Shown: one piece after another, positions 4,210 through 32,196 of the stretch
How positions within the stretch are numbered: the stretch's first letter is position 1
Layout: every line of letters starts with the position of its first letter
DNA from: an uncultured Bacteriovorax sp.
GTDB taxonomy: Bacteria > Bdellovibrionota > UBA1018
DNA length: 64,000 bases
Assembly: GCA_964508305.1 (NCBI GenBank)
Contig: CAZDSX010000001.1
Coordinates: 43,388 to 107,387, forward strand
Direction of reading: 5' to 3'
Position numbers and translations under genes: made by a program
Notes under the pieces: generated by a model
Told to the model about the DNA's origin: nothing
Seen by the model: only the letters and a program-made list of their open reading frames with translations
Databases searched by the model: none

Positions 4210-4297
4210 GACCTCCGGGTCCGCGCCTTTGACTGGCAGGCCTCCATGAAGGAGGCCTGAGGGGCTCCAGAAAACTGCAATCAGGAGGATTGCACCG

Positions 4298-4810
4298 ATG
4301 GAGAACGTACTCACCGAACTGCATCAAAACCTACAGAAGATCCTGTCGCTGCATCGGCAGCTGCTCGACCTGCTTCGTCGCGAGAGGGATGCGCTGGTTG
4401 GCGCCGACGCGGCAGCGATCGAAGATCGCGCCATCGAAAAGCAGGGCGTGCTCGACCAGATTGCTTTTTACGACAATGAGCGCCGCAAGCTGCTCGCGAG
4501 CGTGGGCGCAACCGCCCGGGTGGCTTCCGAACAGCTCACGCTTTCGCGTGTGGCAATCATCGCCCAGGGAGTGCAGGTCAGGATGGGCGAACAGTTTCGC
4601 AGCGTCCAGCAGGCACTCTCCCATATCATCACCCGCATCGAAGAGCAGGGCGCCTACAACCGCGAGCTCGTCGAGCGGAGCCTTGAGACCCTTGCGCAGA
4701 TGAAACGAAACATCATCGGCGCAAGCGAGCCCTCTCCGGGAACCTATTCTGCCAACGGCCAGCGGAGCGCGCAGGCTCCGGGAGCCCGCCTGATTTCGAG
4801 GGAAGTCTAG
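4298..4810 (+). CDS. flgN: FlgN-family flagellar export chaperone (for FlgK/FlgL)
   Basis: 170 aa helical protein, LHRQLLDLLRRERDALVGADAAAIEDRAIEKQGVLDQI (FlgN-like). Immediately upstream of flgK (3-nt gap). Confidence 0.5.
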   Translation: MENVLTELHQNLQKILSLHRQLLDLLRRERDALVGADAAAIEDRAIEKQGVLDQIAFYDNERRKLLASVGATARVASEQLTLSRVAIIAQGVQVRMGEQFRSVQQALSHIITRIEEQGAYNRELVERSLETLAQMKRNIIGASEPSPGTYSANGQRSAQAPGARLISREV

Positions 4811-4813
4811 ACC

Positions 4814-6235: not shown

Positions 6236-6255
6236 GTGAAAGTGAGGGGTAGATC

Positions 6256-7230
6256 GTGAGAGTGACTGAGAACATGAACTTCGACTTGTCCCGCGAGACG
6301 CTGTCGAAGTCGCGCTCGCGGATGGGGCAGCTGCAGGAAAAGGCAGCCAGCACCCGCCGCCTCAACGCGCCCTCCGACGACCCCGTGGGCGCATCCAAGG
6401 TGCTGGAGATCAGGACGGACAAAGTGAATGCGGATCAGTTCATCACCAACGCGAAGCTGGCTGAAAACTTCCTGAGCAACTCGGAGGCCGCGCTAGCCGA
6501 GCTTGGAGACATCCTGATCCGTGCCAAGGAAATTGCCATCGGCCAGAGCAGTGGCGCGAGCGCAAACCCCCAGACCCGGATCGCTGTGGCCGAAGAGGTC
6601 ACGCACCTTTACCAGCAGGCGGTGGCGGCGGCGAACCGCCGGATCGGGGATCGCTATCTTTTTGGTGGATACAAGACCACCCAGCCGCCGTTTGACCGCG
6701 ATGGCAACTACCGAGGAGACGACGGCCAGATGATGGTCGAGATCTCTCGTGAAGTGTTCCTTGGGATGAATGTGCCCGGGATCGACGCCTTCAACACCAA
6801 CCCGGCGGCCGCGCGGCAGGCCCTGCAGAGGGATGCGGGAGGGCCTACCGTGTCTGGTCGGGGTCCGGCTTCGACGGCGGCACCGGAGCAGGAAAACGTA
6901 AATCTTTTCGATGAGCTGCAAAGCCTGAGGATCGGCCTCCTTTCTGGGGATCAGTCCTCGATTCAGGGAACCCTGGAGCGCTTTGACGCGCTGCATGCCA
7001 AGGTGACCTCGGTCCGCTCCATGCTGGGCAGTCGGCTTCAGGGGGTATCAGGCGCCTCACAGTCCATGGAGCGACAGATCGTGACCGGCGCTGGCCTGAG
7101 CTCGTCGATCGAAGATGCCGACATGGCGCAAGTGATGAGCGATCTCGCCCGCGAGGAGACGATCTTCAGGGGTGCTTTGGCAAGCTCCCAGAAGCTAATC
7201 CAGCCGACATTATTGGACTTTCTGAAATAA
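6256..7230 (+). CDS. flgL: flagellar hook-associated protein 3 FlgL
   Basis: Flagellin-like N-terminus (RETLSKSRSRMGQLQEKAASTRRLNAPSDDPVGA) and C-terminus (MAQVMSDLAREETIFRGALASSQKLIQPTLLDFL). Confidence 0.85.
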   Translation: MRVTENMNFDLSRETLSKSRSRMGQLQEKAASTRRLNAPSDDPVGASKVLEIRTDKVNADQFITNAKLAENFLSNSEAALAELGDILIRAKEIAIGQSSGASANPQTRIAVAEEVTHLYQQAVAAANRRIGDRYLFGGYKTTQPPFDRDGNYRGDDGQMMVEISREVFLGMNVPGIDAFNTNPAAARQALQRDAGGPTVSGRGPASTAAPEQENVNLFDELQSLRIGLLSGDQSSIQGTLERFDALHAKVTSVRSMLGSRLQGVSGASQSMERQIVTGAGLSSSIEDADMAQVMSDLAREETIFRGALASSQKLIQPTLLDFLK

Positions 7231-7324
7231 CCAGAGGTTGCCAGCCCATCCGGATTGTTCTATACGGGCCTCAGGTAATGGACTGCCGACTGACCCGTCA
7301 GTGCCGTAGGGAGAACATGAAGTT

Positions 7325-7549
7325 ATGCTCGTTTTAACCCGGAAGTTGGGCGAAAGCATCGCCATCGACGACCACATCAAGATCGTCGTTGTTCAGATCA
7401 AGGGCAAGCAGGTGCGACTGGGAATCCAGGCGCCGCGCGAGACCAAGATCCACCGCGAAGAAGTTTATTCGGCCATTCGGGATCAAAACCAGGAGGCGGC
7501 CAAGGCGCCTGCCGCAGTGGTCAACGTCTCCAAGGCCCTAAAAGGCTAG
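7325..7549 (+). CDS. csrA: carbon storage regulator / translational repressor CsrA
   Basis: [48 protein letters not shown] matches the canonical CsrA fold sequence. RBS agggag upstream. Confidence 0.9.
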
Positions 7550-7639
7550 TTGGCAGGCGCAAAAAAGTACGATTCTATTGAGCAACGGCCGGGCAAGTTG
7601 GGCCCGGAGGCATGACTAGGATAGCCAAGGGGGCAGGGC

Positions 7640-8191
7640 ATGATCATTCAGACAGGACGTTTTGGTCAGCTGACGATTTCAAATGAGGATCTGATCCAGA
7701 TCCCGCAGGGGATCATGGGGTTTCCTAACCTCACCCGCTTCTGTCTCGTGGACCCTGCAGATGACACGCTCATTTTATGGCTGCAGTCGCTCGAAGACGC
7801 GCAGATTGCCTTCCCGGTTCTTGAGCCCAAGGTGTTCCGCCCTGAGTACGCCGCAAGACTGTCGGCAGCCGAGCTCCGCGAACTCAAGCTCGAGAACATC
7901 AACCAGTCGACGGTCTTCTCGATCCTCACCATCCCGGCCGATGTGACCCAGATGACGGCGAACCTCAAGGCTCCGCTTGTGATCAACCTCAAGGACCAGA
8001 TTGCGCGCCAGGTGGTTCTCCAGGAAAACGAGTACAGTGTGAAGCACCTGATGTTCAAGGAACTCAAGTCACACCTCGTGACGCTTGCGGCGGTCAACCA
8101 CGCAGCAGCGAGTGCGGACGAAAAGGCGAGTGCGCCGGTTTCGGTTCGCACCCTCACGCCTTCCAACAGCGTTCGTACGCTCCAGGCCTGA
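7640..8191 (+). CDS. fliW: flagellar assembly factor FliW (CsrA antagonist)
   Basis: MIIQTGRFGQLTISNEDLIQIPQGIMGFPNLTRFCLVDPADDT..ILWLQSLED matches the FliW family. Adjacent to csrA. Confidence 0.85.
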   Translation: MIIQTGRFGQLTISNEDLIQIPQGIMGFPNLTRFCLVDPADDTLILWLQSLEDAQIAFPVLEPKVFRPEYAARLSAAELRELKLENINQSTVFSILTIPADVTQMTANLKAPLVINLKDQIARQVVLQENEYSVKHLMFKELKSHLVTLAAVNHAAASADEKASAPVSVRTLTPSNSVRTLQA

Positions 8192-17864: not shown

Positions 17865-18908
17865 ATGTCCTTTCGACCCGCAGATGCCCTTGGTTTGCAG
17901 AGAGTGATCGAGCCGCGCGGCGTGGGAGCGCTCCCCCAGCAGGCCGAGCGCGTGGATCCTTCGCTCCCGATCGCCGAAGACGAGCTCCTCGTTGAGGTCG
18001 AAAGTCTCAACATCGACTCAGCAAGCTTCCATCAGCTCTCAAAGGCAGCCGAAGGCGACCCGGCCCGACTCGAAGAGTCGATCCGCGCCTTGGTGCGTTC
18101 GCGCGGAAAGCATCACAACCCGGTGACGGGCTCGGGCGGGATGCTCATCGGCACGGTCAAACAGGTTGGCCCGAAGTTTCCCGTCGATAAAAAGCCCGTC
18201 AGGCCGGGGGACCGGATTGCTTCACTGGTTTCGCTCTCGCTCACGCCGCTTGAGATTCGCAAGATCAAGAAGATCCACATGGGGATCGACCGAGTGGACA
18301 TCGAGGGACACGCCATCCTCTTTGCCTCGGGGCTTTTTGCGCGCCTCCCCTCGGACCTTCCCGAGACGGTGGCGCTTGCGGTGCTCGATGTGGCGGGCGC
18401 ACCGGCACAGGCCAGAAGGCTCGCGCGCGCCGGTGAGGTGGTGTTTGTCGTGGGGGGCGGTGGAAAGTCCGGGGTCCTTTGCCTGCATGAGGCCAAGAAA
18501 AAAGGGGCAATCACGATTGCCCTAGATTATTCGGACGCCGCTATTGCGCGCCTTCGCGGACTGTCTTTTGTCGACCATGTGATCCAGGGGGATGCCCGCA
18601 AGGCAGTGGAGGTCATGGAGCGAGTGCGAGCCATTACCGGAGGAAAGATGGCTGACGTGGTGATCAATGTCGCCAACATCCCCGAAACCGAAATGGCGTG
18701 CGTGCTTTCCGCACGCGATCGCGGTCTGGTCTATTTTTTCAGCATGGCCACGAGCTTCACCCGCGCGGCACTGGGTGCCGAGGGCGTAGGGGCGGACATT
18801 GAGCTTGTGATTGGCAACGGATACACGGCAGGTCACGCCGATCTGGCACTCCAGGTCCTTCGTGACAGCCCGGAACTCAAAAAACTTTTCACTGAGACAT
18901 ACTGTTAG
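17865..18908 (+). CDS. kdd: L-erythro-3,5-diaminohexanoate dehydrogenase
   Basis: RVIEPRGVGALPQ, ELLVEVESLNIDSASF, NPVTGSGGMLIG, IASLVSLSLTPL, LDVAGAPAQ, VYFFSMATSFTRAALGAEGVG, IGNGYT. This is colinear with characterised Kdd of lysine-fermenting anaerobes. AGGAG RBS before ATG 17865. Confidence 0.85.
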   Translation: MSFRPADALGLQRVIEPRGVGALPQQAERVDPSLPIAEDELLVEVESLNIDSASFHQLSKAAEGDPARLEESIRALVRSRGKHHNPVTGSGGMLIGTVKQVGPKFPVDKKPVRPGDRIASLVSLSLTPLEIRKIKKIHMGIDRVDIEGHAILFASGLFARLPSDLPETVALAVLDVAGAPAQARRLARAGEVVFVVGGGGKSGVLCLHEAKKKGAITIALDYSDAAIARLRGLSFVDHVIQGDARKAVEVMERVRAITGGKMADVVINVANIPETEMACVLSARDRGLVYFFSMATSFTRAALGAEGVGADIELVIGNGYTAGHADLALQVLRDSPELKKLFTETYC

Positions 18909-18924
18909 GAGCCGAGGCGACCCC

Positions 18925-20490
18925 ATGGCGCACTTGAACCTGGACTTCAAAAAAGTAGAACGCTGCCGGCAGCTCGCCCGAGAGATCTCGGCTCCCGTCG
19001 AGCAGATGATTGATCGACATTCGACCATTGCGATCGAGCGAGCGACGCTCCGCCTGATCGGCGTTGATGGTGCCGTCCAGCAGGCCCGCCAGGTGGTTCC
19101 CGAAGTGAACATCATCGTCGATGATCTTCAAAAGGCAGGCGCGCTATCGCGAGGGGTGCTCATTCCGTTCGTCAACGGCTTGATCCAAACTGGCCTTGGC
19201 GTGAAGGAGCTCGCAACGCAGGCTGCCTTGCGCAAGGTCAAGCTCTCGGAACTTCCGCCATCCCCGGAAGATGCAATCCGCAAGCGGGTCAAGGAGCTTT
19301 GCCGGCAGGCGGTGGAAGGACTGGATTCCGCCCGCAACCTCAGGGACCGGAATCGCGCGGATTGCGGGGACAGGTTTGATCCTTCCGGAAAGGGCGGCCC
19401 GATTCTCTATGTGATCGTGGCCACTGGAAACATCTACGATGACGTGATCCAGGCCAAGGCCGCGGCACAGGCGGGTGCCGACGCAATCGCGGTCATCAGA
19501 AGCACGGCACAGTCTCTTCTTGATTATGTCCCCCATGGAGCCACGACCGAGGGGTTTGGCGGGACTTACGCCACGCAGGAAAATTTTAGGATCATGCGAG
19601 CTGCCCTGGATGAGGAGGGAAAGCGGCTGGGGCGCTATATCCGACTCACCAACTACTGCTCCGGGCTTTGCATGCCTGAGATTGCGGCACTGGGGGCGAT
19701 CGAAAGGCTCGACTTCCTGCTTAATGACGCGATGTACGGGATCTTGTTTCGTGACATCAACATGAAGCGAACGCTGATCGACCAGCATTTCTCGCGCAAG
19801 ATCATTGCCCGCTCACGGATCGTGATCCATACGGGGGAGGACAACTATCTCACCACGGCAGACGCAACTGAAAATGGCCATCAAGTCCTGGCCTCCCAGT
19901 TCATCAACGAGCGTTTTGCGAGCCACGCCGGGATGTCCGAAGACCTGATGGGTCTTGGTCACGCCCAGGAGATGAACCCTGAACACCCCAATGTGTTCCT
20001 GCTCGAGATTGCCCGAGCCCAGATGACCCGCGATATTTTCCCGCGCTCTCCCATCAAGTTCATGCCGCCCACGCGCCACAAAAGCGGAGACATCTTCTAC
20101 AGCCATCTGATGGATGCGATGTTCAACTTTGTGGGGGTCTTGACCGGGCAAACCATCCAATTACTTGGGATGGCGACTGAGGCGATGCACACTCCGCTCC
20201 TTCAAGACAGGTGGATGAGCATCAAGAACGCCAAGTACATCTTTAACGGGGCCAAGGACCTGGGCGTGGACATCACGTTCAACCCGGGAGGTCTGATCGA
20301 TTCGTGGGCAACCAAGGTGCTCGACGACGCGCTTGCGCATCTCGAGATGATCCACGCCAAAGGGATGTTCCGCGCCATCCAGGAAAAGGCCTTTGCCGAG
20401 GTCAGCCGCCGCGAAGAGGGCGGCAAGGGGCACGACGGTGTGTTCCTGCGAGCGCAGGGCTACCTGAACCCCTTCTTTGAAATCCTTTAA
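18925..20490 (+). CDS. kamD: lysine 5,6-aminomutase alpha subunit
   Basis: LNLDF, SGPLLYVIVATGNIYDDV, AAAQAGADAIAVIRSTAQSLLDYVPHGATTEGFGGTYATQENFRIMR, YIRLTNYCSGLCMPEIAALGAIERLD, GEDNYLTTADA, LGHAQEMNPE are KamD-family blocks. RBS taggag before ATG 18925. The upstream extension in the tool ORF is rejected. Confidence 0.9.
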   Translation: MAHLNLDFKKVERCRQLAREISAPVEQMIDRHSTIAIERATLRLIGVDGAVQQARQVVPEVNIIVDDLQKAGALSRGVLIPFVNGLIQTGLGVKELATQAALRKVKLSELPPSPEDAIRKRVKELCRQAVEGLDSARNLRDRNRADCGDRFDPSGKGGPILYVIVATGNIYDDVIQAKAAAQAGADAIAVIRSTAQSLLDYVPHGATTEGFGGTYATQENFRIMRAALDEEGKRLGRYIRLTNYCSGLCMPEIAALGAIERLDFLLNDAMYGILFRDINMKRTLIDQHFSRKIIARSRIVIHTGEDNYLTTADATENGHQVLASQFINERFASHAGMSEDLMGLGHAQEMNPEHPNVFLLEIARAQMTRDIFPRSPIKFMPPTRHKSGDIFYSHLMDAMFNFVGVLTGQTIQLLGMATEAMHTPLLQDRWMSIKNAKYIFNGAKDLGVDITFNPGGLIDSWATKVLDDALAHLEMIHAKGMFRAIQEKAFAEVSRREEGGKGHDGVFLRAQGYLNPFFEIL

Positions 20491-20514
20491 GACGATCCGG
20501 CCAGGAGAGAAGAC

Positions 20515-21387
20515 ATGTCCTCGAAAGCAGCAGTGGTCGACCTGAAGAAGCTCAAGCCCTATGGCGACATCATGGGGGATGGAACCATCCAGATCTCCTT
20601 TACCTTGCCGGTTGAGCCTTCACCCGAGGCCCGCGAGGCCGCCATCCAGTTGTGTGAAAAGATGGGGCTGGACCAGATCAAGGTTGCCACGATGGAGAAG
20701 GCTGCCGAGGGGTTCGCGCTCTTTGTGGTCTATGCCAATGTCCGCCACACCGTGGACTTTACCAAGATCCATGTCGTCAAGGTCGACGCCCAAAAGCGTT
20801 CACGCGAGGAGATTGATGAGATCATCGCAACCCAGATTGGACGAAAGCTCGTCGTCATGGGGGCCTGCACCGGGTATGACGCCCACACCGTGGGCATCGA
20901 TGCCATCATGAACATGAAGGGCTTTGCCGGGGACTACGGGCTGGAGCGCTACCAGTGGATCGACGCCCGAAACCTGGGCGCGCAGGTATTGAATGATGAG
21001 CTCCTGAAAAGGGCGGTTGCAGAAGGGGCGGATGCGATCCTGGTTTCCAAGGTGGTGACCCAGCACAACATCCACATGCGCGACATGAAGGATCTCATGA
21101 ACCGTGCAAGGCAAATGGGCCTGCTCGAGAAGATCATCTTCGTTGCCGGTGGCCCTCGCGTCACTCATCCTCTCGCACTGGAGTGTGGGTTTGATGCGGG
21201 CTTTGGAGTGGGAACCAAGCCCTCGGACGTTGCCAGTTATATTGTCGAGGAATTCATCAAGAGGATGTCCGCCCAGAAGCAGCCCGCCCCCGCTCCACAA
21301 GCGCCAAGGGCAAAACCAAAGGCCCGCGGAAAGCCGAGTCCGAAGCCCAAGGGCACTTCGCGTGCGGGCTTGCGCAAACGCCGCTAA
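20515..21387 (+). CDS. kamE: lysine 5,6-aminomutase beta subunit (B12- and PLP-binding) with an extra ~45-aa basic Pro/Lys/Arg-rich C-terminal tail
   Basis: KLKPYGDIMGDG.IQISFTLPV, B12 DxHxxG motif GACTGYDAHTVGIDAIMNMKGFAG (with the PLP Lys), ILVSKVVTQHN, IFVAGGPRV. Tail QKQPAPAPQAPRAKPKARGKPSPKPKGTSRAGLRKRR. Confidence 0.9.
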   Translation: MSSKAAVVDLKKLKPYGDIMGDGTIQISFTLPVEPSPEAREAAIQLCEKMGLDQIKVATMEKAAEGFALFVVYANVRHTVDFTKIHVVKVDAQKRSREEIDEIIATQIGRKLVVMGACTGYDAHTVGIDAIMNMKGFAGDYGLERYQWIDARNLGAQVLNDELLKRAVAEGADAILVSKVVTQHNIHMRDMKDLMNRARQMGLLEKIIFVAGGPRVTHPLALECGFDAGFGVGTKPSDVASYIVEEFIKRMSAQKQPAPAPQAPRAKPKARGKPSPKPKGTSRAGLRKRR

Positions 21388-21409
21388 GGCATGAGAATCG
21401 GGCACAAGC

Positions 21410-22339
21410 GTGATGAAAAAATCCTCTCCCCAGCCAAAAGCCAAGCCGAATAAAAAGACCGCCACACCGTCACACCTGCTCGTCGGTCGTGGGCAGGAGT
21501 CCGCCTCGGTTCGCGCCTGCCTTGAGGCAGGTCGCAACGTGCTCCTGGAGGGGCCTGTCGGAGTGGGAAAAACCCAGCTCGCCCTGTCCATTTGTGAGGG
21601 GGCAGGACGCAAGGTTTTTCGCGTCGATGGAGACGGAAGGTTCACGGAGCAAAAGCTCTCGGGCTGGTTTGATCCGCCACTTGTCATTAAATTTGGTTAC
21701 TCCGCCAAATCCTTCGTTGCGGGCCCTCTCGTGGAGGCGATGATAGAGGGAGGGATTCTCTTTATCAACGAGCTCAACCGCCTCCCGGAAGGCGTACAAA
21801 ACGTGCTTCTTCCGGCAATCGACGAGCGTCGAATCGTGGTCCCACGCCTGGGACAGGTGGTGGCTGCCGATGGCTTTGCCGTTGTTGCAACACAGAACCC
21901 GAAGGAGTTCGTTGCCACCTCTCACCTGAGCGAGGCGATCTTGGATCGCTTTGAGCTCGTCGTTCTGGATTACCAGAGCGAGGAAGAAGAGCGAAAGATC
22001 GTCTCCCGCACGGTATCGGATGCAGTTTTGGTGGAGGCCTCTGTGAGGCTTGCCCGGATCACCCGCAATCATCCACGCGTCAAGCGTGGTGCTTCAGTTC
22101 GCGCAGCCCAGGCTGTAGCTGAGATCGCCCAGGCCTTGCTCGCGGGACGAGGCTCAGTCCCAAGCCGCCGCGAAGCATTTGTGGCCGCCGCACTCATTGC
22201 CCTTCCCACGCGTATCGAGATTGAACGGGATGCAGACTCCACGCAGTCGCACGCAGCCGAGGTCTCTTCCTTGGTTGAGTCCTGCGCCGAATCGGCAATG
22301 TCGGGCGAGGAGATGGTCGCCTCAAAAAAAAAGACCTGA
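21410..22339 (+). CDS. MoxR-family AAA+ ATPase
   Basis: Walker A LLEGPVGVGKTQLA, Walker B ILFINELNR, ATQNP...LSEAILDRF sensor/arginine-finger region typical of MoxR/RavA-like ATPases. 309 aa. Confidence 0.8.
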   Translation: MMKKSSPQPKAKPNKKTATPSHLLVGRGQESASVRACLEAGRNVLLEGPVGVGKTQLALSICEGAGRKVFRVDGDGRFTEQKLSGWFDPPLVIKFGYSAKSFVAGPLVEAMIEGGILFINELNRLPEGVQNVLLPAIDERRIVVPRLGQVVAADGFAVVATQNPKEFVATSHLSEAILDRFELVVLDYQSEEEERKIVSRTVSDAVLVEASVRLARITRNHPRVKRGASVRAAQAVAEIAQALLAGRGSVPSRREAFVAAALIALPTRIEIERDADSTQSHAAEVSSLVESCAESAMSGEEMVASKKKT

Positions 22340-22437
22340 CTGAGCGCCAACAGGGGGCGGAGCAGGCGCAGCCCTTCAAGCGAGCGGAGATCCAGTTCTC
22401 ACCCCCGGAAGAGTCCGGGGGGCTTCTTGATCCCGGA

Positions 22438-23307
22438 ATGGAAGCTGACGACGGGGAGATGCTCGATGCGGGAGTGTCGAGCGCCTGGGATGTGGCCACG
22501 CGCTACCATGAATTCAAGGCCAAGCCATCGCTGAAGAAGGTGGCCCACCATCTCCGCGAGATCTCCACGGAGGCGATTCTTGAAAAGGCGCGCTCGGTGT
22601 TGGGGTCCGTCGTGCATCCGACCAAGGTGGATCTTTCACCCTGGGACAGCGTGCCCGCCTCGGCCGAGGGTGTCGAGCTTGAGCTTGATGAGACCACTGA
22701 AGGTGCGCCTGGAATCTTGCGTGGGGACGTGGTGTCGGCAAGCCAGCTGATCATGGAGTACCGCACTCGAAGGGTCCAGCCAGTGATCATCGCGGTAGAT
22801 ACGAGCCTGTCGATGACTGGAGAAAAGCTTGCGCTCACCGCCGTGGCATTAGCCGTTGTTCTGCTGCAGTTTCCCGAGGACCCCATCGGGATCGTTGCCT
22901 TTGAAAACCGCCCCCAGGTGCTCAAGCTCCCCAGTGAACGGATCAGCGTGCGGGAGCTGATGGCGAGGTTCCTCGATGTGCCGGCTCAGGGTTACACGCA
23001 CCTTGAGTCAGGGATTCAGGAGGCCCTCCGCCTGGTGGGTGAGACCGAGGCCCGAGGTGGAGGACGCCCACCGGCAGTGCTGCTGCTCACGGACGGAAAA
23101 TACACGGCCGGTCGAGACCCGGCTTATCTTGCACCGAGGTTCAGGCAGCTCAATGTCATGAAGATGGGACCCGAAAAGTCGAGTTTACCACTCTGCCGCG
23201 ATCTGGCGCATCGCGGTGGGGGCAGCCTCAGAGAGGTCGCCGAGCTCGAATCCCTGCCAGCGGCAATGTACGGCGTCGTGAAGGATCTGCTTCGCGGCAG
23301 GCGATGA
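22438..23307 (+). CDS. von Willebrand factor A (VWA) domain protein, partner of the MoxR ATPase
   Basis: MIDAS motif IIAVDTSLSMTGEK. ...VLLLTDGKYTAGRDP. The frame is open upstream back into the moxR 3' end. Confidence 0.75.
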   Translation: MEADDGEMLDAGVSSAWDVATRYHEFKAKPSLKKVAHHLREISTEAILEKARSVLGSVVHPTKVDLSPWDSVPASAEGVELELDETTEGAPGILRGDVVSASQLIMEYRTRRVQPVIIAVDTSLSMTGEKLALTAVALAVVLLQFPEDPIGIVAFENRPQVLKLPSERISVRELMARFLDVPAQGYTHLESGIQEALRLVGETEARGGGRPPAVLLLTDGKYTAGRDPAYLAPRFRQLNVMKMGPEKSSLPLCRDLAHRGGGSLREVAELESLPAAMYGVVKDLLRGRR

Positions 23308-23359
23308 GGTTCTTTTTTTGGTTGAGCCAACCCGCCATTGGAGTATCTTCGGCCCACCT

Positions 23360-23557
23360 ATGCGCAAAGACTATAAAATGCAGGGAAAGCTCGTGAAGAT
23401 CTCCATCGAAGTGGAAGAGCAGGTCGCCACTGTGCTTGCCGAGATGGAGAAGTTTTCCAAGCTGACGCAGTCCGAGCTCGGCAACACGGCGCTCAAGCGC
23501 TTCATCACCCATCATAAGGACTTCCTGCCCCCCGGCTACAAGGCCAAGAGCCAGTAA
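23360..23557 (+). CDS. small hypothetical protein (about 65 aa, possibly ribbon-helix-helix-like)
   Basis: High GC3. MRKDYKMQGKLVKISIEVEEQVATVLAEMEKFSKLTQSELGNTALKRFI. Convergent with the downstream lipoprotein gene. Confidence 0.35.
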   Translation: MRKDYKMQGKLVKISIEVEEQVATVLAEMEKFSKLTQSELGNTALKRFITHHKDFLPPGYKAKSQ

Positions 23558-24260: not shown

Positions 24261-26234
24261 TCAGGTGGCCTGGTCCATCAGTTCGGCGATGTCCATGACC
24301 TTGACCTTGTCGAGCATCTCTTTGCTCTTCACGCCGTCAGTCATCATGGTCATGCAGAACGGGCACGAAGAGGCAACGATCCCTGCGTGGGTCTCGAGGG
24401 CTTGCTCGGTGCGCGTGATGTTGATGCGCTTCCCGATGTGCTCTTCCATGAACATGCGGCCCCCGCCGGCGCCGCAGCACATCCCGGAATCCCGGTTTTG
24501 TTTCATCTCCACCAGTCGCGCAGAGGGAATGGACTCAATCACGGTGCGCGGCTGCTCGTAGACGTTATTCCAGCGTCCCAGATAGCAGCTGTCATGGAAG
24601 GTGATCGACTCATCGACCCCCTTGGTGGGCTTGAGCTTTCCGTCCTTGATCAGCGAGGCAATGAACTGGGAGTGGTGGAATACTTCGTAGGTTCCGCCAA
24701 AATCCTTGTACTCGTTCTTGATCGTGTTGAAGCAATGCGGACAGGCAGTGACGATCTTCTTGATGCCATGGCGATTGAGCGTCTCGATGTTGGCTTGTGC
24801 GAGCGTCTGGTAGAGGTATTCGTTTCCGATGCGGCGAGCCGGATCGCCCGTGCACTGTTCTTCGTTGCCCAGGATTGCAAAGCGGATCCCGGCCTTCTTG
24901 AGGAGAGACACAAAGGAGCGAAGCACCTTCTTGTTGCGGTCATCGAATGAGCCCGCGCAGCCCACCCAGAGCAGGACATCAATCTCGGGGCTTTCGGCCA
25001 TGGTGGGTACCGAAAGACCCTCGGACCACTTGTCGCGATCGGCAGAGCTGAATGCCCAGGGGGTGGCGTTTGTTTCGAGATTCTTGAAGATGGTTCCGAT
25101 GCCGTCGGGCATCTTTGACTCCATCATCACAAGATTGCGGCGGATGTCGAAGATCTTGTCGGTCTGCTCGATGAAGACAGGACATGCGATCTCGCAGGCG
25201 CGGCAGCTGGTGCAGGCCCAGATGACGTCTTCGGTGATGTCCTTTCCGATCAGCGGCTTGAGCTCATCGGTCTTGCCGGCAAGGATGGCGTCCTTGTTCT
25301 CGTAAAGGTTGTGCTTGATGTCGAGGACCAGGAGCTTGGGGCTAAGCGGTTTCTGGGTGTTCCAAGCAGGACAGAGATCCTGGCAGCGCCCGCATTCGGT
25401 GCAGGCGTAGGTGTCGAGCGTGTCCTTCCAGCCGAGGTCCGTGATTTTTGCGGCGCCATATTGCGTGACACTCTCGTCCGCAAAATTGATCGGGCGCATG
25501 GCCTTCTCGCGAGTGAGCTGGCGCAGGAAAGTGTTGGGCCCTGCCGCAATGATATGCAGGTGTTTGGAGTGCGGGATGTAGGCAGCAAAGCCAAGCACAA
25601 ACAACATGTGCACCCACTTGAAGGCGGTGGCCATGGCCGCATTGCCCTCTGCGCTCAGCCCAAACCCGAGGAATGCATCCGCCAGATGCCGTGAAAAGAT
25701 GAAGTGCTCGGCATGGCCTGCCGCAGTGCTCAGGATCTGGAACCCGTTCATGCACAGGATCGAGATCATGAGCGAACCCGTGAATGTGAGCACGATGTTG
25801 GCGTCGCGCGATTGCCCGAGGCCTTCTGGCCGGATCACCAGGCGCCGGTAAAAGGCTCCACCCACGGCAAAAAGGATGGCTACCGTGAAGAAGTCCTGGA
25901 CCGAGATGAGCGGACCGTAGACGGGACCGAGGAACTCGAAGCTCCAGCTCGTGTTGAGCGTGGAGGCGAACTGTTCAAGGGTTCCAATCGTGATGATGAG
26001 AAAGCCCCAAAAGATGATCGTGTGGAGGATCCCGATCCCCTTCTTGCGCAGAACCGCCTTCTGCCCAAGGACGTGGATTGCCGTGTCGATGATGCGGGCG
26101 GGGATGTCGGTCAGGCGATTGCGGACGGGGCCCTTCTGGGCCTTGAGCATCTCAAAGAGGATCTTGAAGCGAAGCCCCGAGTAACCAAAAGCCGCACCAG
26201 CCACCAACAAAAAGGCGAACGTTTGCCATGTCAT
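24261..26234 (-). CDS. membrane-bound FeS oxidoreductase of the ETF:(mena)quinone oxidoreductase type (NarI-like b-type TM domain + 2x[4Fe-4S] + two CCG cysteine-rich domains)
   Basis: N-terminal TM helices, CTECGRCQDLCP and CTSCRACEIACP ferredoxin motifs, and C-terminal HdrD/GlpC-like CCG domains (CPHCFN..., MCCGAGGG). 657 aa. Located next to etfAB. Confidence 0.8.
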   Translation of the reverse strand: MTWQTFAFLLVAGAAFGYSGLRFKILFEMLKAQKGPVRNRLTDIPARIIDTAIHVLGQKAVLRKKGIGILHTIIFWGFLIITIGTLEQFASTLNTSWSFEFLGPVYGPLISVQDFFTVAILFAVGGAFYRRLVIRPEGLGQSRDANIVLTFTGSLMISILCMNGFQILSTAAGHAEHFIFSRHLADAFLGFGLSAEGNAAMATAFKWVHMLFVLGFAAYIPHSKHLHIIAAGPNTFLRQLTREKAMRPINFADESVTQYGAAKITDLGWKDTLDTYACTECGRCQDLCPAWNTQKPLSPKLLVLDIKHNLYENKDAILAGKTDELKPLIGKDITEDVIWACTSCRACEIACPVFIEQTDKIFDIRRNLVMMESKMPDGIGTIFKNLETNATPWAFSSADRDKWSEGLSVPTMAESPEIDVLLWVGCAGSFDDRNKKVLRSFVSLLKKAGIRFAILGNEEQCTGDPARRIGNEYLYQTLAQANIETLNRHGIKKIVTACPHCFNTIKNEYKDFGGTYEVFHHSQFIASLIKDGKLKPTKGVDESITFHDSCYLGRWNNVYEQPRTVIESIPSARLVEMKQNRDSGMCCGAGGGRMFMEEHIGKRINITRTEQALETHAGIVASSCPFCMTMMTDGVKSKEMLDKVKVMDIAELMDQAT

Positions 26235-26325
26235 AGAGTGCCTAACAGTTTAAGCGCGCGGCCTATCTGCAGCAACCGAGAACGGCAAAGGATGGCTTGA
26301 GGCCAGAAAATTGGCGCTCGAGAGA

Positions 26326-27294
26326 TCAGTGCTCCTTGAGCTTCTTGAACTCGTCTTTCAGAAGCGGCGCCACGGCAAACAGGTCTCCCACGATCCCGTA
26401 GTCGGCCACCTGGAAGATGGGCGCCTCGGGGTCGGTGTTGATGGCCACGATCACCTTGGAGGTGCGCATGCCGGCCAAGTGCTGGATGGCTCCGCTGATC
26501 CCGCAGGCGATGTAGAGATTGGGGGAAACGACCTTGCCGGTCTGGCCCACCTGGTCGCGGTGCGGGCGGAAGCCTGCGTCCACGGCTGCGCGGGAGGCGC
26601 CGACGGCTGCGCCGATCGTATCAGCCACTTCTTCGAGGATCTTGAAGTTATCGGCGTTCTTGAGCGAGCGACCGCCCGAGATCACGGTTCCTGCCTCGGT
26701 CACATCCGGACGTCCGGCCTGGCCCTGGACCACTTCGGTCACTTGGGTCGTCACGCCGGAGAGCGACACTGCCACGGTCTGGACGGCAGCTGACTTGGAG
26801 GTGTCCGCCTTGGGCATGCCCAGGGCGTTTGCGCGAACGGTCGCAAGCTTTGGGCCCGCGCCCAGGAATTCCACTTCGACCGTGGCCTTGCCCGCATAAA
26901 CCGGGCGGCGGGCCACGATCCCGTTTCCTTCAAACTTGAGGCTGATGCAGTCGGTGGCAAGCCCCGCGCCGAGACGGGCTGCGACCTTCGGCATGAAGTC
27001 ACGGCCGGTCGGTGAGTGGGCGGCCAGGATCACGTCGGGCGAAAGCGCCTTTGCGACCTGCACCACGACCTGGCTGTAGGCCTCGGCCGTGTAGAACTTC
27101 AGGCCCGCATCGTTTGCGACGTGGACCTGGGCGGCACCATAGTGTCCAAGTTCGGCAGCAAGGCCCTGGATGCCTTCTCCGAGGAGGAGGACATGGGTTT
27201 CGTTGCCTGCGGCGCTTGAGGCGCCGACGAGTTCAAACGAAGTCTTCTTGAGCTTGGAATCGCGCTGTTCGGCGATGACGAGTACTTTTGCCAT
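26326..27294 (-). CDS. etfA: electron transfer flavoprotein alpha subunit
   Basis: [10 protein letters not shown]..., FAD-binding C-terminal region [34 protein letters not shown]. Confidence 0.9.
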
Positions 27295-27296
27295 GA

Positions 27297-28070
27297 TTAG
27301 AGCACCTTTGCTTCTTCGTGGAGGAGGCGAGCGAGTTCCTTGGCCTGTGCAGCCGGCTCACCGGCCAGCTTCTTTCCTGCCTGCTTGGGCGGCGGGAGCT
27401 GGAAGTTCTTGTAGCGGATCTTCTGGTCCGCGTCGGTCACGCCGAGGTCGGATTCCTTGAGGACCTTCACTTCCTTCTTCTTGGCCTTCATGATGTTGGG
27501 AAGGCTTGCGTAGCGCGGTTCGTTCATTCCCTTTTGGGCTGCGATGAGCGCAGGAAGCGGAGTGGTGACGATTTCGAAGGCACCGCCTTCGACTTCGCGC
27601 TTGCACTTGAGCGAGGCCGCTCCGTACTCGACATTGAGCACGACGGTGACATACGGCAGCCCTGCAAATTCGGCCACAAGCTGGCTCACTTGCGCGGAAC
27701 CATCGTCGATGGCCTCCTTGCCCGTGAACACGATATCAACCTTGGGCTCCTTCTTGAGTGCCGCAGCCAGCGCCTTGGCCGAGCGATAGTTGTCCGCACC
27801 TTCGGCAGCATCGACATGGATTGCGTTGTCTGCTCCCATGGCGAGCGCCGTGCGGAGGGTGTCTACCACGCGAACCGGACCAGCCGAGATCACGGTGACC
27901 GTGCTGCCTGGATTCTTGTCGCGAAGGCGGAGTGCCTCTTCGACTGCGAACTCATCATAGGGCGACATGATCCACTTGATTCCCGTGGTGTCGATGCCGG
28001 TGTTGTCGCCGTTGAGCTTGATCTTGGTCTCGGTGTCCGGAACCTGCTTGATGCAGACGTAGATGTTCAT
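27297..28070 (-). CDS. etfB: electron transfer flavoprotein beta subunit
   Basis: MNIYVCIKQVPDT...IKW.MSPYDEFAVEEALRL..VTVIS.GP matches canonical EtfB. Confidence 0.9.
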   Translation of the reverse strand: MNIYVCIKQVPDTETKIKLNGDNTGIDTTGIKWIMSPYDEFAVEEALRLRDKNPGSTVTVISAGPVRVVDTLRTALAMGADNAIHVDAAEGADNYRSAKALAAALKKEPKVDIVFTGKEAIDDGSAQVSQLVAEFAGLPYVTVVLNVEYGAASLKCKREVEGGAFEIVTTPLPALIAAQKGMNEPRYASLPNIMKAKKKEVKVLKESDLGVTDADQKIRYKNFQLPPPKQAGKKLAGEPAAQAKELARLLHEEAKVL

Positions 28071-28082
28071 AAGTGGCCCTAT

Positions 28083-29249
28083 TTATAGCGATGCGCTCAA
28101 GATCTCTGCAACCTGTTTTAGGACCGCCACGTCGCTGCAAAGCGTGAAGCGGACAAAACCTTCACCGCCACGGCCAAAGCCGGTTCCTGGCGTGCTCACG
28201 ATCCCCTTGGTGCGAATCAGGTTGAGGACGAAATCCTCGGACTTGAGCCCTGCGGCAAGCTTGCACCAGACGTAAAAAGTTGCCTCAGGCGTCCGACAGG
28301 AGAGGCCCGCCTTGCGGAGCGCGGGGACCAGGATATCCCGACGCTTTTGGTAAATTGCTCGAAGCTCCGTGCAGAAGGGCTCGTAGTGATCGAGGGCTTC
28401 GATGCCCGCCTCCTGGCAGGCGTTGAAGATCCCGGAATCGATGTTGGTCTTGACCTTGGCCAGGCCCTCTATGACGCGAGCATTGCCCGCGACAAAGCCC
28501 ACGCGCCAGCCCGTCATATTGAAGGTTTTGGATAGGCTGTGGAACTCCACGCCCACGTCCTTGGCACCAGGCACCTCCAGGAAGGAGCACTGGGCCTTTC
28601 CGTCGAAAAACAGCTCCGAGTAGGCATTGTCGTGGCAGACGATGATCTCGTGCTTTTTGGCAAACGAGACGACTTCCTTGAAGAACTCCCGTGTTGCAAC
28701 CGCCCCGGTGGGGTTGTTCGGGTAGTTCAGGAACAGGAGCCTGACCTTGGGGCCCGTCTTCACGAGTCGTTCGAGATCTGCAAAGTCCGGCAGGAAGCCG
28801 TTCTCCTCCTTGAGGAGGAAGGGGAGCGGGATCCCATCTGCAAAGAGGGTGGCCGAGTTGTAGACGGGATAGCCCGGGTCGGGAACCAGGGCGGCCTCCC
28901 CCGGGTTCACGAACGCAAGCGGGATGTGGGCGATGCCCTCCTTGGACCCGATGAGTGCCAGGACCTCGGTGTCAGCGTTCAGTCCGACGCCGAAGCGCTT
29001 TTCCATGAAGCGAGCGGAGGCCCTCCTGAATTCCGACATCCCCCAGTAGGACGGGTACTGGTGGTTCTCGGGGTTTCGCGCGGCCTGTTCAAGCCTCTTG
29101 ATGATGAACTCCGGGGTGGGGAGATCCGGATCGCCGATTCCAAGGGCGACCAGCTTTCGTCCCTTCTTGATCTCCTCCTGCTTGATCTGGTCAATGCGGG
29201 CAAAGAGGTAGGGGGGCAGCTGCTTGAGCCTGTGGGTCATTTCAAACAT
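28083..29249 (-). CDS. dapL: LL-diaminopimelate aminotransferase, DapL type (class I aminotransferase)
   Basis: LPPYLFARIDQIKQEEIKKGRKLVALGIGDPDLPTPEFII...NHQYPSY.GMSEFR, SLSKTFNMTGWRVG (PLP Lys). Lies in a dapA-dapB context. Confidence 0.75.
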   Translation of the reverse strand: MFEMTHRLKQLPPYLFARIDQIKQEEIKKGRKLVALGIGDPDLPTPEFIIKRLEQAARNPENHQYPSYWGMSEFRRASARFMEKRFGVGLNADTEVLALIGSKEGIAHIPLAFVNPGEAALVPDPGYPVYNSATLFADGIPLPFLLKEENGFLPDFADLERLVKTGPKVRLLFLNYPNNPTGAVATREFFKEVVSFAKKHEIIVCHDNAYSELFFDGKAQCSFLEVPGAKDVGVEFHSLSKTFNMTGWRVGFVAGNARVIEGLAKVKTNIDSGIFNACQEAGIEALDHYEPFCTELRAIYQKRRDILVPALRKAGLSCRTPEATFYVWCKLAAGLKSEDFVLNLIRTKGIVSTPGTGFGRGGEGFVRFTLCSDVAVLKQVAEILSASL

Positions 29250-29977
29250 GAGAGTTTCTCCTCAAAAAAATCATCCAGGGTGAGCCATCCCGCGCCCGTG
29301 GGCTCGGACTTTTGCTTCTTGCCCAGCCAGAGGGCGGTCTCAAGAGCCCCTCGAGCAAAGATTTCGCGCGACTGCGCGTGGTGCTCGAGCGTGACGCGCT
29401 CGCCATGTCCATGGAACTCCACGCGGTGATCGCCGATCACCTCACCCGCACGGATGCTGTGGATCCGCTCGCTGGAGAGGCCCGAGGTGGCAGCGGCCAG
29501 GGTGATGGCCGTCCCGCTCGGGGAATCCTTTTTATGGATGTGATGGGTTTCCACCATCAATGGGCGGAAGCCCGAGGCCGAGAGGATCGGGGAGATGAAC
29601 TCCAGGGCCTTCCTCAGGGCCAGCACTCCGGTGGAGAAATTCGATGCCTGCAGCACCCGGGTTCGTCGGGCAACCGAGTCGAGCTCCGCCTTCTCCTGGG
29701 CCGAGTGTCCGGTCGTTCCAATCACGAGTGCAGGAAGCAGGCGCGAAGATGGTGCGCTTGCCAGTGCTCGGGTCAGCCTGGCAGTACCCTTGGGAAGCGA
29801 AAAATCCACCCACACATCGGCAGCAAGTGCATCCTCCCATTCCGAGTCATCCGACAGGGAGTGAAGGCTTGCGATGAGCTCCGAGCTTGCGGCGAACTCC
29901 CCTGCAATGAGGTGCGCGAGCGCCCGGCCCATCTTGCCGCGCGATCCGATGATGGCAATCCGCAGGCGCGCAGCCAT
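29237..29977 (-). CDS. dapB: 4-hydroxy-tetrahydrodipicolinate reductase
   Basis: IAIIGSRGKMGRA (NAD(P) binding). ETHHIHKKDSPSGTAI is the DapB signature. Confidence 0.85.
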   Translation of the reverse strand: MAARLRIAIIGSRGKMGRALAHLIAGEFAASSELIASLHSLSDDSEWEDALAADVWVDFSLPKGTARLTRALASAPSSRLLPALVIGTTGHSAQEKAELDSVARRTRVLQASNFSTGVLALRKALEFISPILSASGFRPLMVETHHIHKKDSPSGTAITLAAATSGLSSERIHSIRAGEVIGDHRVEFHGHGERVTLEHHAQSREIFARGALETALWLGKKQKSEPTGAGWLTLDDFFEEKLSCLK

Positions 29978-30898
29978 TTAGAGGGTTCCTCCGCCAGCCC
30001 GAAGCCCGCAGCGCAGGAGGCTTGCTTCGAGCCTCTTCTGGTTGTCGCTCGAGAGGGCCACGAGGGGAGCGCGAACCGTCGATGTGCAAAGAGCGGTGGA
30101 AGGCGATTCGCCCACGAATGCAAGCGATGCCTTGATGGGAACCGGATTGGACTCGATGAAAAGATCCCGAAAAAGGGGATAGAAGCGCTGGTGGAGCTCG
30201 AACGCCTCCCGGTTTTTTCCCTCTTCAAAAAGACGCTGGATGCGGACCATGGCCCGTGGAAAGAGGTTGCTTGCAACCGAGACCACGCCCACGGCGCCGG
30301 CAGCAAGAAGGGGAAGAAAGGTGGCATCATCGCCAGAGAAGATCTCAAGCGAATGTCCTGCCACCTGGAACTGGTCGATATATTCGGAGGCAAGCCCGAC
30401 GTTGCCCGTGGCTTCCTTGAACCAGCGGATGCGCGGGTGTGCCGCAAGCTTGGCCGCGGTTTCAGGAGGCAGGCTCACGCCCGTTCTTCCCGGGACATTA
30501 TAGAGCATCACGGGACAGCTCACTGAGTCGGCCACCTGGATGAAGTGTGAATAAAGTCCGGCAGCAGAGGGCTTGTTGTAATACGGAGTGACGATCAGGA
30601 CGCCATCCGCCCCGGCCTGTGAGGCCCAGCTCGAGAGCGAAACGGTGTCCGGAGTCGAGTTGCTTCCCGTGCCTGCGATCACTCGCGTGCCGGTGCCCCG
30701 GCAGGTGCGGATGGACTCCGAGATGAGGGTCTTTTTCTCCTCGGTCGAAAGAGTGGGACTCTCTCCCGTGGTCCCGCACGGGATGACGGCTGATACACCG
30801 GCAGCAATCTGGTCCTTGATCAGTCGGTCAAAGGCCGCCAGATCCAGCGATCCGTCGGCGTGGAAGGGGGTCACGAGTGCAGTGATGATGCCTTTCAT
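29978..30898 (-). CDS. dapA: 4-hydroxy-tetrahydrodipicolinate synthase
   Basis: MKGIITALVTPF...GVSAVIPCGTTGESPTLS, YNVPGRTG. Start ATG 30898 overlaps the lysA stop (ATGA). The long upstream extension in the tool ORF is rejected. Confidence 0.9.
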   Translation of the reverse strand: MKGIITALVTPFHADGSLDLAAFDRLIKDQIAAGVSAVIPCGTTGESPTLSTEEKKTLISESIRTCRGTGTRVIAGTGSNSTPDTVSLSSWASQAGADGVLIVTPYYNKPSAAGLYSHFIQVADSVSCPVMLYNVPGRTGVSLPPETAAKLAAHPRIRWFKEATGNVGLASEYIDQFQVAGHSLEIFSGDDATFLPLLAAGAVGVVSVASNLFPRAMVRIQRLFEEGKNREAFELHQRFYPLFRDLFIESNPVPIKASLAFVGESPSTALCTSTVRAPLVALSSDNQKRLEASLLRCGLRAGGGTL

Positions 30899-32196
30899 GG
30901 GCGCTCCCCTCGTAGCAGATCCGAGAGCTGCTCGCGATCCCGGATCACGCGGGCGCGCTTGCCGGAGACCAGGATCTCGGCCGGCCTGGTTCGCGTATTG
31001 TAGTTGCTTGCCATGCTCATCCCATATGCGCCGGCGCTCATGAATGCGACCAGATCCCCCGAACAGAGGCCCGTCGAAAGCGGGCGGTCCGAGCCAAAGC
31101 AGTCTCCGCTCTCGCAAACCGGACCCACGACGTCGGTTGGCTTTTTTCGGCCACGCGACTGGGATTGCTCGACAGGGAGAATGTCGTGGTAGCTGCCGTA
31201 GAGCGCCGGACGCATGAGGTCGTTCATTCCCGCATCCAAGATCAGGAAGTCCTTGCTCGGGCGAGGCTTTCGAAAGAGGACCTGCGAAACGAGGATCCCC
31301 GAGTTGCCGCTCAACACTCGACCCGGCTCAAGCAGGATGCGAAGGCGGTTCTTGAACGGAGAGCTGTTGCCGAAGGCGCGGACCACTTCCCTGCAGTAGT
31401 CGGAGATCCGGGGCGGCTTCTCATCCTTATACTGGATTCCGACGCCTCCACCCAGGTCGGCAAACTCAAGCGGCCTTCCGATGGTCGATTCCACATTGAG
31501 GATCTCGCGGCCCAGCATCGAAAAAGCCTCCTTGAGGGGCTTGAGCGAAGTGAGCTGGCTTCCGATGTGGATGCTCATTCCGCAAAGCTTGACGTTGGGA
31601 AGCGAAGGGAGCAGGGCCACGGCCTCGCGAACCTCCTGGGCATTGAGGCCAAACTTGTTCCGCTTGAGACCCGGGCTGTTCTACGGGTGGGTCTTGGCGT
31701 CGATCTTGGGGTTGAACCGGAGCGCCACTCGCGCCGGAGGGCGTCCGGTGGCCCTGGTCACGGCATCGATCATGATGAGTTCCTGCACGGACTCCACGTG
31801 GAAGGAGGTGATGCCCGGGCGTCGCCCAACATTATAATGAAGGCCCGCACTGATCTCCTCGGGGGTCTTTCCGACGCCTGAAAACACGACGCGATCTCCG
31901 GGGATCCCGGCAATCCTTGCGCGCTCAAGCTCTCCGCCCGATACCAAGTCTGCGCCGGAACCGAGCTTGCCCATCATCTTGACGATGGCGATGTTGGAGT
32001 TTGCCTTGAGCGCGTAGCAAATGGTCAGGTCCCGGATCGACGATAGCCCCGAGGCAAGGGCGCGATACCGGGTTTCGAAAGCCGTGGCGCTGTAGATGTA
32101 AAGCGGCGTCCCGTGCTCGCGGGCCAGTCGGTCCACCGGCATGCCGTCGGCGTGAAGGACGCCCTTGATGTACTTGAACTGAGGATGGTCGCTCAT
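30895..32196 (-). pseudogene. lysA: diaminopimelate decarboxylase lysA interrupted by one in-frame TAG (minus-strand codon 31683..31681) at the conserved Tyr of the HP-Y-ISTG motif; otherwise intact
   Basis: N-terminal part (YALKANSN, ...KIDAKTHP) and C-terminal part (NSPGLKRNKFGLN...EPGR..CESGD.F) are in the same frame, separated only by TAG where homologues have TAY. Confidence 0.6.

Follow-up and report, generated by a model that had tools for sequence, protein, structure and literature searches.

A MoxR-class AAA+ protein and a VWA protein encoded beside lysine 5,6-aminomutase in Bdellovibrionota: a candidate replacement for the KamB/KamC reactivase

The 64,000-nt stretch of DNA analysed here (the window) comes from an uncultured Bacteriovorax sp. 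and encodes both subunits of the B12-dependent lysine 5,6-aminomutase, KamD and KamE (together KamDE). Directly downstream of kamE lie genes for a MoxR-class AAA+ ATPase and for a protein with a VWA domain, and the products of this pair probably constitute a helper, not described before, that maintains the activity of KamDE. Our preferred reading, to which we assign a probability of about one half from sequence comparison and analogy, is that the two proteins form a motor and adaptor of the NorQ/NorD kind with KamDE as the client, and that in this lineage they take the place of KamB and KamC, the proteins named as the reactivase of this enzyme. The identity of the genes, the integrity of their motifs, a gene order that is conserved, often with translational coupling, and the mutual exclusion of the pair with KamB/KamC are established observations.

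The unit comprises six co-oriented genes on the + strand (17865–23557), and it lies between a divergently oriented upstream gene, which encodes a secreted protein, and a convergent downstream one. Starting at the 5′ end, kdd (17865–18908, 347 aa) encodes a homologue of L-erythro-3,5-diaminohexanoate dehydrogenase. It is followed by kamD (18925–20490), whose start was placed at the ATG at 18925 from the translation and from 521-aa orthologues, and by kamE (20515–21387), which encodes a core binding B12 and pyridoxal phosphate (PLP) with a C-terminal tail. The AAA+ gene (308 aa) runs from an ATG at 21413 to 22339, with an alternative GTG start at 21410; its spacing from kamE is 25 bp measured from the ATG and 22 bp from the GTG. 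After 98 bp the VWA gene follows (22438–23307, 289 aa), and a small open reading frame (ORF) of 59 aa resembling a ribbon–helix–helix protein (23378–23557) closes the unit. The initial annotation had placed the first five genes colinearly at these positions, with spacings of 22 and 98 bp; all five are present on the + strand as it described, and the conserved 59-aa ORF is the member that it overlooked.

The products of kdd, kamD and kamE all exceed the cut-offs of their NCBIfam equivalog models. Kdd matches Lys_ferment_KDD (NF052381) with 245.5 bits (cut-off 200). KamD matches the Lys_5_6_mutase alpha model (NF052384) with 746 bits (cut-off 600) and Pfam Lys-AminoMut_A (PF09043) with E 3e-226. 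KamE matches Lys_5_6_beta (NF052385) with 345.5 bits (cut-off 280), comprises OAM_dimer and B12-binding domains, and can be aligned end to end with the KamE chains of solved structures (8t0v_C, E 1e-78; 1xrs_B, E 1.2e-75). The cobalamin motif DAHTVG and the lysine of NMKG are both conserved in a residue-by-residue alignment with 8t0v_C, so that the DxHxxG motif and PLP lysine read earlier in KamE coincide with those of a solved chain. Elsewhere, the KamD representatives P0121, P0122, P0124 and P0126 (726–841 aa) are apparent gene fusions, having either a C-terminal extension on KamD or an N-terminal domain of ~315 aa that precedes it.

The AAA+ protein is assigned to the MoxR class by its Pfam AAA_5 domain (PF07728, 82.6 bits against a gathering score of 22), Walker A motif (GPVGVGKT), sensor 1 (ATQNP) and arginine finger (the arginine of LDRF), the three motifs being invariant in 11 aligned family members. 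Its closest solved relatives are the AAA domains of midasin, NorQ (E 3e-13) and CbbQ (5c3c, E 6e-7). The Walker B motif is ILFINELNR (residues 116–123); it departs from the canonical hhhhDE pattern in that N119 occupies the position of the aspartate in the Walker B motif of midasin, while the catalytic glutamate is kept. The same asparagine is found in all 11 aligned members and in the single AAA–VWA fusion examined (L149; loci are numbered with the prefix L). The AAA+ and VWA proteins reach none of the NorQ, CbbQ and GvpN equivalogs, the best score being 69 bits for GvpN (TIGR02640, cut-off 266.8), nor the MadB model (62.6 bits against 475). Identity with the chelatases CobS/CobT or ChlI/ChlD was rejected from scores of 29–30 bits against 779 for TIGR02442 and 18–30 against 500 for BchD, and Pfam scans of the window revealed no CobN-like ORF. 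No NCBIfam or Pfam model specific to either protein was matched, and the names given to the pair in the databases are generic, such as 'MoxR-like ATPase' and 'Mg-chelatase subunit ChlD'.

The VWA protein (Pfam VWA_2) has a complete metal-ion-dependent adhesion site (MIDAS), with D121-x-S123-x-S125, T187 and D219 invariant in 22 orthologues. The N-terminal motif WD-x-A-x-RYHEFK is also invariant in these 22. An AlphaFold2 model built from an alignment of database homologues has a pLDDT of 87, and Foldseek aligned this model over 274 columns with NorD of the NorQD complex (9qhe_G); its other hits include the MIDAS domain of Rea1 and generic VWA domains. The gene had been described as encoding a MIDAS-containing VWA protein, and the five intact residues and the fold support this. 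Adjacent to the AAA+ gene and co-oriented with it, it completes a MoxR–VWA pair.

The 59-aa ORF is kept after the VWA gene in 27 related loci, or after kce in L011 and L142. It has no Pfam match; its profile gives a weak match to the CopG repressor (1b01 and 2cpg, E 0.005), and its AlphaFold2 model has an extended N-terminus followed by two helices. It is a likely candidate for a regulator of the operon. Riboswitch or other RNA control was considered and set aside, Rfam at gathering thresholds finding two tRNAs only in the window. A terminator scan matched a GC-rich hairpin of 8 bp with a weak T tail in the spacer between the AAA+ and VWA genes (22402–22421, + strand). Neither the sequence nor the structure of this hairpin is kept in relatives, so it is rejected as an internal terminator and not taken as an operon boundary.

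The association of the pair with kamDE was followed from both sides. A metagenome scan seeded with the AAA+ alignment gave 80 loci, and a search that took one genome for each species and started from a diverse KamD alignment also gave 80; the region searched comprised the 10-kb flanks of the loci together with the window. All of the top 120 AAA+ homologues have an identity of 59% or more, and they bear generic names only. Seven homologue contexts were read singly, and all seven have kamE directly upstream and a VWA gene downstream. Among the metagenome AAA+ loci kamE is directly upstream in 37 of 80, many of the others being too short upstream to judge, and in three an ELFV-type amino-acid dehydrogenase gene occupies that position instead. 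KamE and AAA+ genes are adjacent in 51 loci, plus L169–L171, and a VWA gene follows in 38 of the 39 kam-linked loci with sufficient downstream sequence, the 39th having a divergent VWA ORF.

Seen from the kamD side, the order kdd-kamD-kamE-AAA-VWA occurs in six of the 80 loci. All six are from metagenome-assembled genomes (MAGs) classified as Bdellovibrionota, Oligoflexia, Bacteriovoracaceae or 'Deltaproteobacteria', and their KamD is at least 60% identical to that of the window. The other 74, here called canonical, belong to other phyla (Firmicutes, Bacteroidales, Fusobacteria, Thermotogota, Cloacimonetes, Brachyspira, Sorangium, Alicyclobacillus, Actinomycetota and Asgard MAGs), and the AAA–VWA pair was not found within 10 kb in any of them. 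The initial annotation had named co-occurrence of the MoxR and VWA genes with kamDE as the test of its proposal. They do co-occur, in the seven contexts, in the 37 metagenome loci and in all six of the Bdellovibrionota-type kamD loci.

Three kam-linked architectures were distinguished, across which the only constant companions of the pair are kamD and kamE. The window type has the order [optional ELFV dehydrogenase]-kdd-kamD-kamE-AAA-VWA-RHH (RHH denoting the ribbon–helix–helix-like ORF) within a conserved wider neighbourhood. The L011/L012 type is ordered ELFV-kdd-kamD-kamE-AAA-VWA-kce, placing the pair between pathway genes on both sides. The L157 type, of which four examples were seen, a Bdellovibrionota MAG and a contig of 2.98 Mb among them, is ordered response regulator-PilZ-kamD-kamE-AAA-VWA; its flanks are unrelated, and kdd, ELFV dehydrogenase and kce are all missing. 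A 4-bp overlap of kamE with the AAA+ gene, in at least seven loci (L003, L004, L011, L012, L016, L169 and L171), points to co-translation. The linkage persists down to identities of ~51% for AAA+, 29% for VWA and 54% for KamD, and the kam-linked members span the diversity of the family in a crude neighbour-joining distance tree (midpoint root, without support values). On these comparisons the linkage of kamDE with the pair is not due to chance.

The ELFV enzyme itself is ~355 aa long and resembles leucine, phenylalanine and tryptophan dehydrogenases (351 bits for the ScyB model, cut-off 600). Its gene precedes kdd in many relatives (L007, L008, L011, L012, L016, L093 and others) but does not do so in the window. 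Given this enzyme and the absence of kamA from all examined flanks, lysine or 2,5-diaminohexanoate, and not beta-lysine, may be the starting compound of the kam pathway here.

The canonical loci, which are clusters for lysine fermentation, carry a different pair of accessory genes, placed just upstream of kamD. Their clustered ORFs follow the order kal-kce-(atoDA)-kdd-kamA-KamB-KamC-kamD-kamE. KamB, which has no Pfam domain, matches the NCBIfam model 'lysine 5,6-aminomutase reactivase subunit KamB' (NF052386, 379 bits against 210), and KamC, a MutS domain V protein, matches 'reactivase ATPase KamC' (NF052383, 427 bits against 300). Both genes are present in 36 of the 53 canonical loci whose sequence extends 3 kb or more to each side of kamD; six have one and 11 have neither. 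In the AAA-linked loci KamA, KamB, KamC and Kal gave no match in any of the 51 (for KamB/KamC by tblastn at 1e-5), and at E ≤1e-3 tblastn found no KamB or KamC in the window or in the first 13 such loci. KamB/KamC and the AAA–VWA pair are thus mutually exclusive in the DNA examined, and as the two never co-occur, non-orthologous replacement of KamBC is the best reading of their distribution.

An ATP-dependent E2 protein that reactivates lysine 5,6-aminomutase has been described in reviews (PMC9081730). Together with the naming of KamB and KamC as a reactivase, this leads one to expect an ATP-dependent accessory function for KamDE. KamB/KamC is presumed to be the functional analogue of the AAA–VWA pair: both are two-gene accessory units containing an ATPase and lying beside kamDE, with complementary distributions. 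The folds are unrelated, however, KamC being a MutS domain V ATPase, and KamB/KamC is encoded upstream of kamD whereas AAA–VWA lies downstream of kamE. KamB/KamC is found in Firmicutes, Bacteroidales, Fusobacteria, Thermotogota and Asgard MAGs, and not in the Bdellovibrionota loci. As for the Asgard (Promethearchaeota) contigs, kamD-kamE is present in L020, L026, L027, L028, L048 and L074. The longer ones (L027, L028, L048 and L074) have kdd upstream and at least one reactivase gene each, and L027, the sole Asgard locus with its full order read, is arranged kce-kdd-kamA-KamB-kamD-kamE.

KamE itself differs between the two kinds of locus at its C-terminus. In the window it ends in a tail of 40 residues rich in K, R and P (encoded at ~21265–21384). 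The tails of AAA–VWA-linked KamE proteins (loci L001–L171) are likewise K/R/P-rich and disordered, with lengths of 2–67 residues and a median of 18, while canonical KamE extends past the core by a median of three residues. At least two of the last four residues are K or R in 85% of the AAA–VWA-linked proteins, compared with 18% of the canonical ones. Several of the linked tails are merely 2–8 residues long. The basic tail that co-varies with the pair may be mechanistically relevant. A canonical locus from a Pseudomonadota MAG (L017) also encodes a KamE with a basic tail, of 39 residues, and has neither KamBC nor AAA–VWA nearby; when an alternative ATPase was sought there, the first downstream ORF was found by eye to resemble a diacylglycerol-kinase-like protein.

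From the genomic association and the parallel with NorQ/NorD we infer a physical interaction with KamDE, its role as the client and the chemistry of reactivation. In the mechanism that we propose, the VWA protein would dock on the AAA+ hexamer and bind KamDE through its MIDAS site. ATP-driven remodelling would then open up the contact of the B12-binding domain with the barrel, letting cobalamin damaged in suicide inactivation leave and fresh adenosylcobalamin bind. The disordered K/R-rich tail of KamE is a possible handle. Repair, cofactor loading and regulation are not separable by sequence.

Several known machines share features with this scheme. NorQ/NorD inserts the FeB cofactor into nitric oxide reductase. 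As in that system, the pair is a two-gene motor and adaptor unit beside the structural genes of its putative client; the AAA+ protein matches NorQ, and the VWA model aligns with NorD over 274 columns and has a complete MIDAS. The proposed client here is a B12/PLP radical enzyme, in contrast to the membrane haem/non-haem iron enzyme served by NorQ/NorD, the VWA protein has just 289 aa, Walker B reads N-E in place of D-E, and scores fall far below the curated NorQ, CbbQ and GvpN models. CbbQ/CbbO, a Rubisco activase that rescues enzyme trapped in an inhibited state, is also a MoxR–VWA pair encoded beside its client, and CbbQ is a detectable relative; the client and the chemistry of inhibition are different, CbbO is much larger, and the CbbQ membership cut-off is not reached. 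CobS/CobT is to our knowledge the sole established AAA+/VWA system in the biology of B12. In NorQD a finger of the VWA protein enters the AAA+ pore and force is passed to the client (PMC13036017). A preprint describes the same shaft-in-ring action of CobST on the corrinoid-binding subunit CobN (10.64898/2026.07.21.739949). The pair thus shares with CobS/CobT an AAA+ ring and a VWA-type adaptor, and, in the scheme proposed here, a corrinoid-binding target. It differs in having no significant match to the chelatase models and no cobN nearby, and its likely task is the exchange of a cofactor on a finished enzyme rather than the insertion of a metal.

The proposed job is that of DdrAB/PduGH/GdrAB, EutA and MeaB/MMAA, which use nucleotides to drive the release of damaged cobalamin from adenosylcobalamin enzymes (Toraya and Mori 1999, cited in PMC9081730). 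These proteins have ASKHA/DnaK-like or SIMIBI GTPase folds, unlike the pair, and have no homologues in the window. The initial annotation had rightly noted the DnaK-like fold of DdrAB and GdrAB among known B12 reactivases, and had omitted KamB and the MutS-like KamC, which are named for KamDE itself.

A number of observations weigh against replacement of KamB/KamC by a pair dedicated to KamDE. The 11 canonical loci with neither KamB nor KamC within 10 kb indicate that adjacency of a reactivase is not obligatory, and KamBC could be located elsewhere in the genomes that bear AAA–VWA, beyond the 10-kb flanks and the 64-kb window. All of the kam-linked loci apparently belong to one phylum, Bdellovibrionota (including Oligoflexia and old-style 'Deltaproteobacteria' MAGs), which confounds the exclusivity with phylogeny. 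The replacement of the Walker B aspartate by asparagine throughout the family may make the ATPase activity atypical. At least 23 related loci with adequate flanks lack kam genes, and relatives with AAA+ domains 51–63% identical occur in unrelated or in other corrinoid contexts. Lastly, in L098, L115, L150, L172 (8893–12214) and L173 the order is ELFV dehydrogenase-AAA-VWA-RHH, with kdd-kamDE cleanly absent. These loci are of low G+C content and retain the wider synteny of the window type (AstA, aldehyde dehydrogenase, CSD and the secreted protein), and their AAA+ and VWA genes are intact and under purifying selection (dN 0.08–0.15 with dS saturated; dN/dS ~0.04 for VWA). In such genomes either kamDE has moved elsewhere or the pair serves another client. 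Repeated loss of kdd-kamDE was considered for L098 and L115, which lie apart in the crude tree; a single lineage is more likely, since their AAA+ proteins are 68–72% identical to each other and both loci are of low G+C content. The initial annotation had suggested a novel reactivase or maturation system specific to KamDE. Co-occurrence with kamDE and exclusivity with KamB/KamC lend partial support to such a system, whereas 'KamDE-specific' is too strong in view of the L098-type pairs without adjacent kamDE, the relatives in other contexts and the single phylum.

The alternative that survives best, though we consider it unlikely, is that the pair is a broader corrinoid-protein chaperone acting in cofactor delivery, insertion or holoenzyme assembly, with KamDE merely its client in this lineage. 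The sister group of the window clade, which comprises L128 and L134, contains the closest non-kam relatives of the pair. In L134 (5451–9853) a gene for a radical SAM enzyme that has a B12-binding domain precedes the unfused pair; both loci have an uncharacterised ORF of ~205 aa upstream, and a NUDIX gene is annotated in L128. Fusions of the two proteins (~600 aa, with AAA+ domains 52–55% identical) are encoded directly after the gene for the adenosyltransferase CobA in L129, L131 (7180–12102), L132, L160 and L151, adjoining CobD, CobQ, CbiB, an AcsV/RamA-like corrinoid reductive activase and an MttB-family methyltransferase. These contexts favour a corrinoid chaperone, as does the precedent of CobS/CobT, an AAA+/VWA pair that acts on a corrinoid-binding protein according to the preprint cited above. 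Corrinoid genes beside non-kam relatives also count in favour of the preferred reading. Reading by eye, however, placed some other fusions next to a GAF histidine kinase, PdaD and a deoxyhypusine-synthase-like gene and others next to an aldehyde:ferredoxin oxidoreductase, and other unfused members adjoin genes of sugar metabolism, all without a visible link to B12. The corrinoid contexts are just two of about nine non-kam types, so that they appear recurrent but not universal in the wider family. The proteins also show no family match to CobS, CobT or the cobaltochelatases (TIGR02442, above), and loading and reactivation are inseparable by genomic context. Were the family with the N-E Walker B indeed a general class of corrinoid-enzyme chaperones with clients differing by clade, which we hold doubtful, it would serve KamDE in Bdellovibrionota (replacing KamBC) and B12-dependent radical SAM enzymes in the sister clade, and its fused form would serve corrinoid methyltransferase systems. 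It would then be a fourth structural solution to the exchange or repair of the B12 cofactor, on the NorQD/CobST principle.

Somewhat less probable again is that the pair serves another client or general housekeeping, its position next to kamDE being synteny inherited within one phylum. The L098/L172 lineage, which keeps the pair under purifying selection in an otherwise identical neighbourhood from which kdd-kamDE is cleanly absent, would be expected from this, and many family members are not kam-linked. Class-III aminotransferases also recur near several of the non-kam relatives. (ORFs resembling these PLP enzymes, judged by eye, adjoin the AAA–VWA genes in L155, L122, L145, L149 and L164.) Inherited synteny is less easily reconciled, however, with the recurrence of a minimal four-gene kamDE-AAA-VWA unit in the quite different neighbourhood of the L157 type, with the embedding of the pair between kamE and kce in another clade, with the 4-bp overlaps of kamE and the AAA+ gene, with a linkage held down to 29% VWA identity, or with the lack of KamB/KamC exactly where the pair is present. 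Least probable is a regulator, which would control KamDE allosterically at the expense of ATP or would unfold it and turn it over in a controlled way, the basic tail of KamE being a degron-like handle: the variable, disordered K/R-rich tails do co-occur with the pair, and the Walker B asparagine could mean slow hydrolysis and switch-like behaviour, but the operon has no protease partner, tail length is highly variable (2–8 residues in several linked loci), and characterised MoxR–VWA systems, NorQD and CbbQO among them, are known for remodelling or activating client proteins and not for degrading them.

The setting of the unit in the window gives no complete lysine fermentation pathway. KamA, Kce and Kal have no match in the 64 kb by tblastn or in Pfam scans of the large ORFs, so that kamA, kce and kal (or kat) do not complete the set there; the absence of kamA, kce and kal had already been noted in the initial annotation, along with a high-GC, flagellated chromosome, and both descriptions hold (G+C content ~60%, flagellar genes at 71–8191). 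The remaining window contains flagellar genes, an arginine-succinyltransferase-type cluster, and genes for lysine biosynthesis, electron transfer flavoprotein (ETF) and housekeeping functions. Convergent to the kam unit, at 24261–32196 on the − strand, are genes for a membrane HdrD/CCG iron–sulfur oxidoreductase, ETF alpha and beta, an aminotransferase, dapB, dapA and lysA. The HdrD/CCG-ETF-dapB-dapA-lysA arrangement is kept across the window-type clade, making genes for lysine synthesis and lysine rearrangement neighbours. Within lysA (diaminopimelate decarboxylase; 30895–32196, − strand) there is a single in-frame stop at 31681–31683 (..AKTHP*NSPGLKRNKFG..); the gene may be a pseudogene, or the stop may come from an error in sequencing or from recoding.

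Adenosylcobalamin radical enzymes undergo self-inactivation and rely on dedicated, nucleotide-driven repair proteins, of which those known have DnaK-like, G-protein or, for KamDE, MutS-like folds. No linkage of a MoxR or VWA protein to aminomutases or adenosylcobalamin enzymes was found in a full-text search of the searchable literature, and the AAA–VWA pair would be a new client assignment for a known kind of machine, as far as comparative genomics can indicate. If the preferred reading of a NorQ/NorD-like motor and adaptor acting on KamDE is correct, engineering of lysine 5,6-aminomutase in aerobic hosts, an enzyme of interest for the production of beta- and diamino acids, would gain a compact system of two proteins for its reactivation. 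The pair would also add a new client class to the MoxR AAA+/VWA chaperones, whose clients are mostly unknown, and would extend the shaft-in-ring mechanism of NorQD and CobST to the exchange of a cofactor on a finished B12 enzyme.

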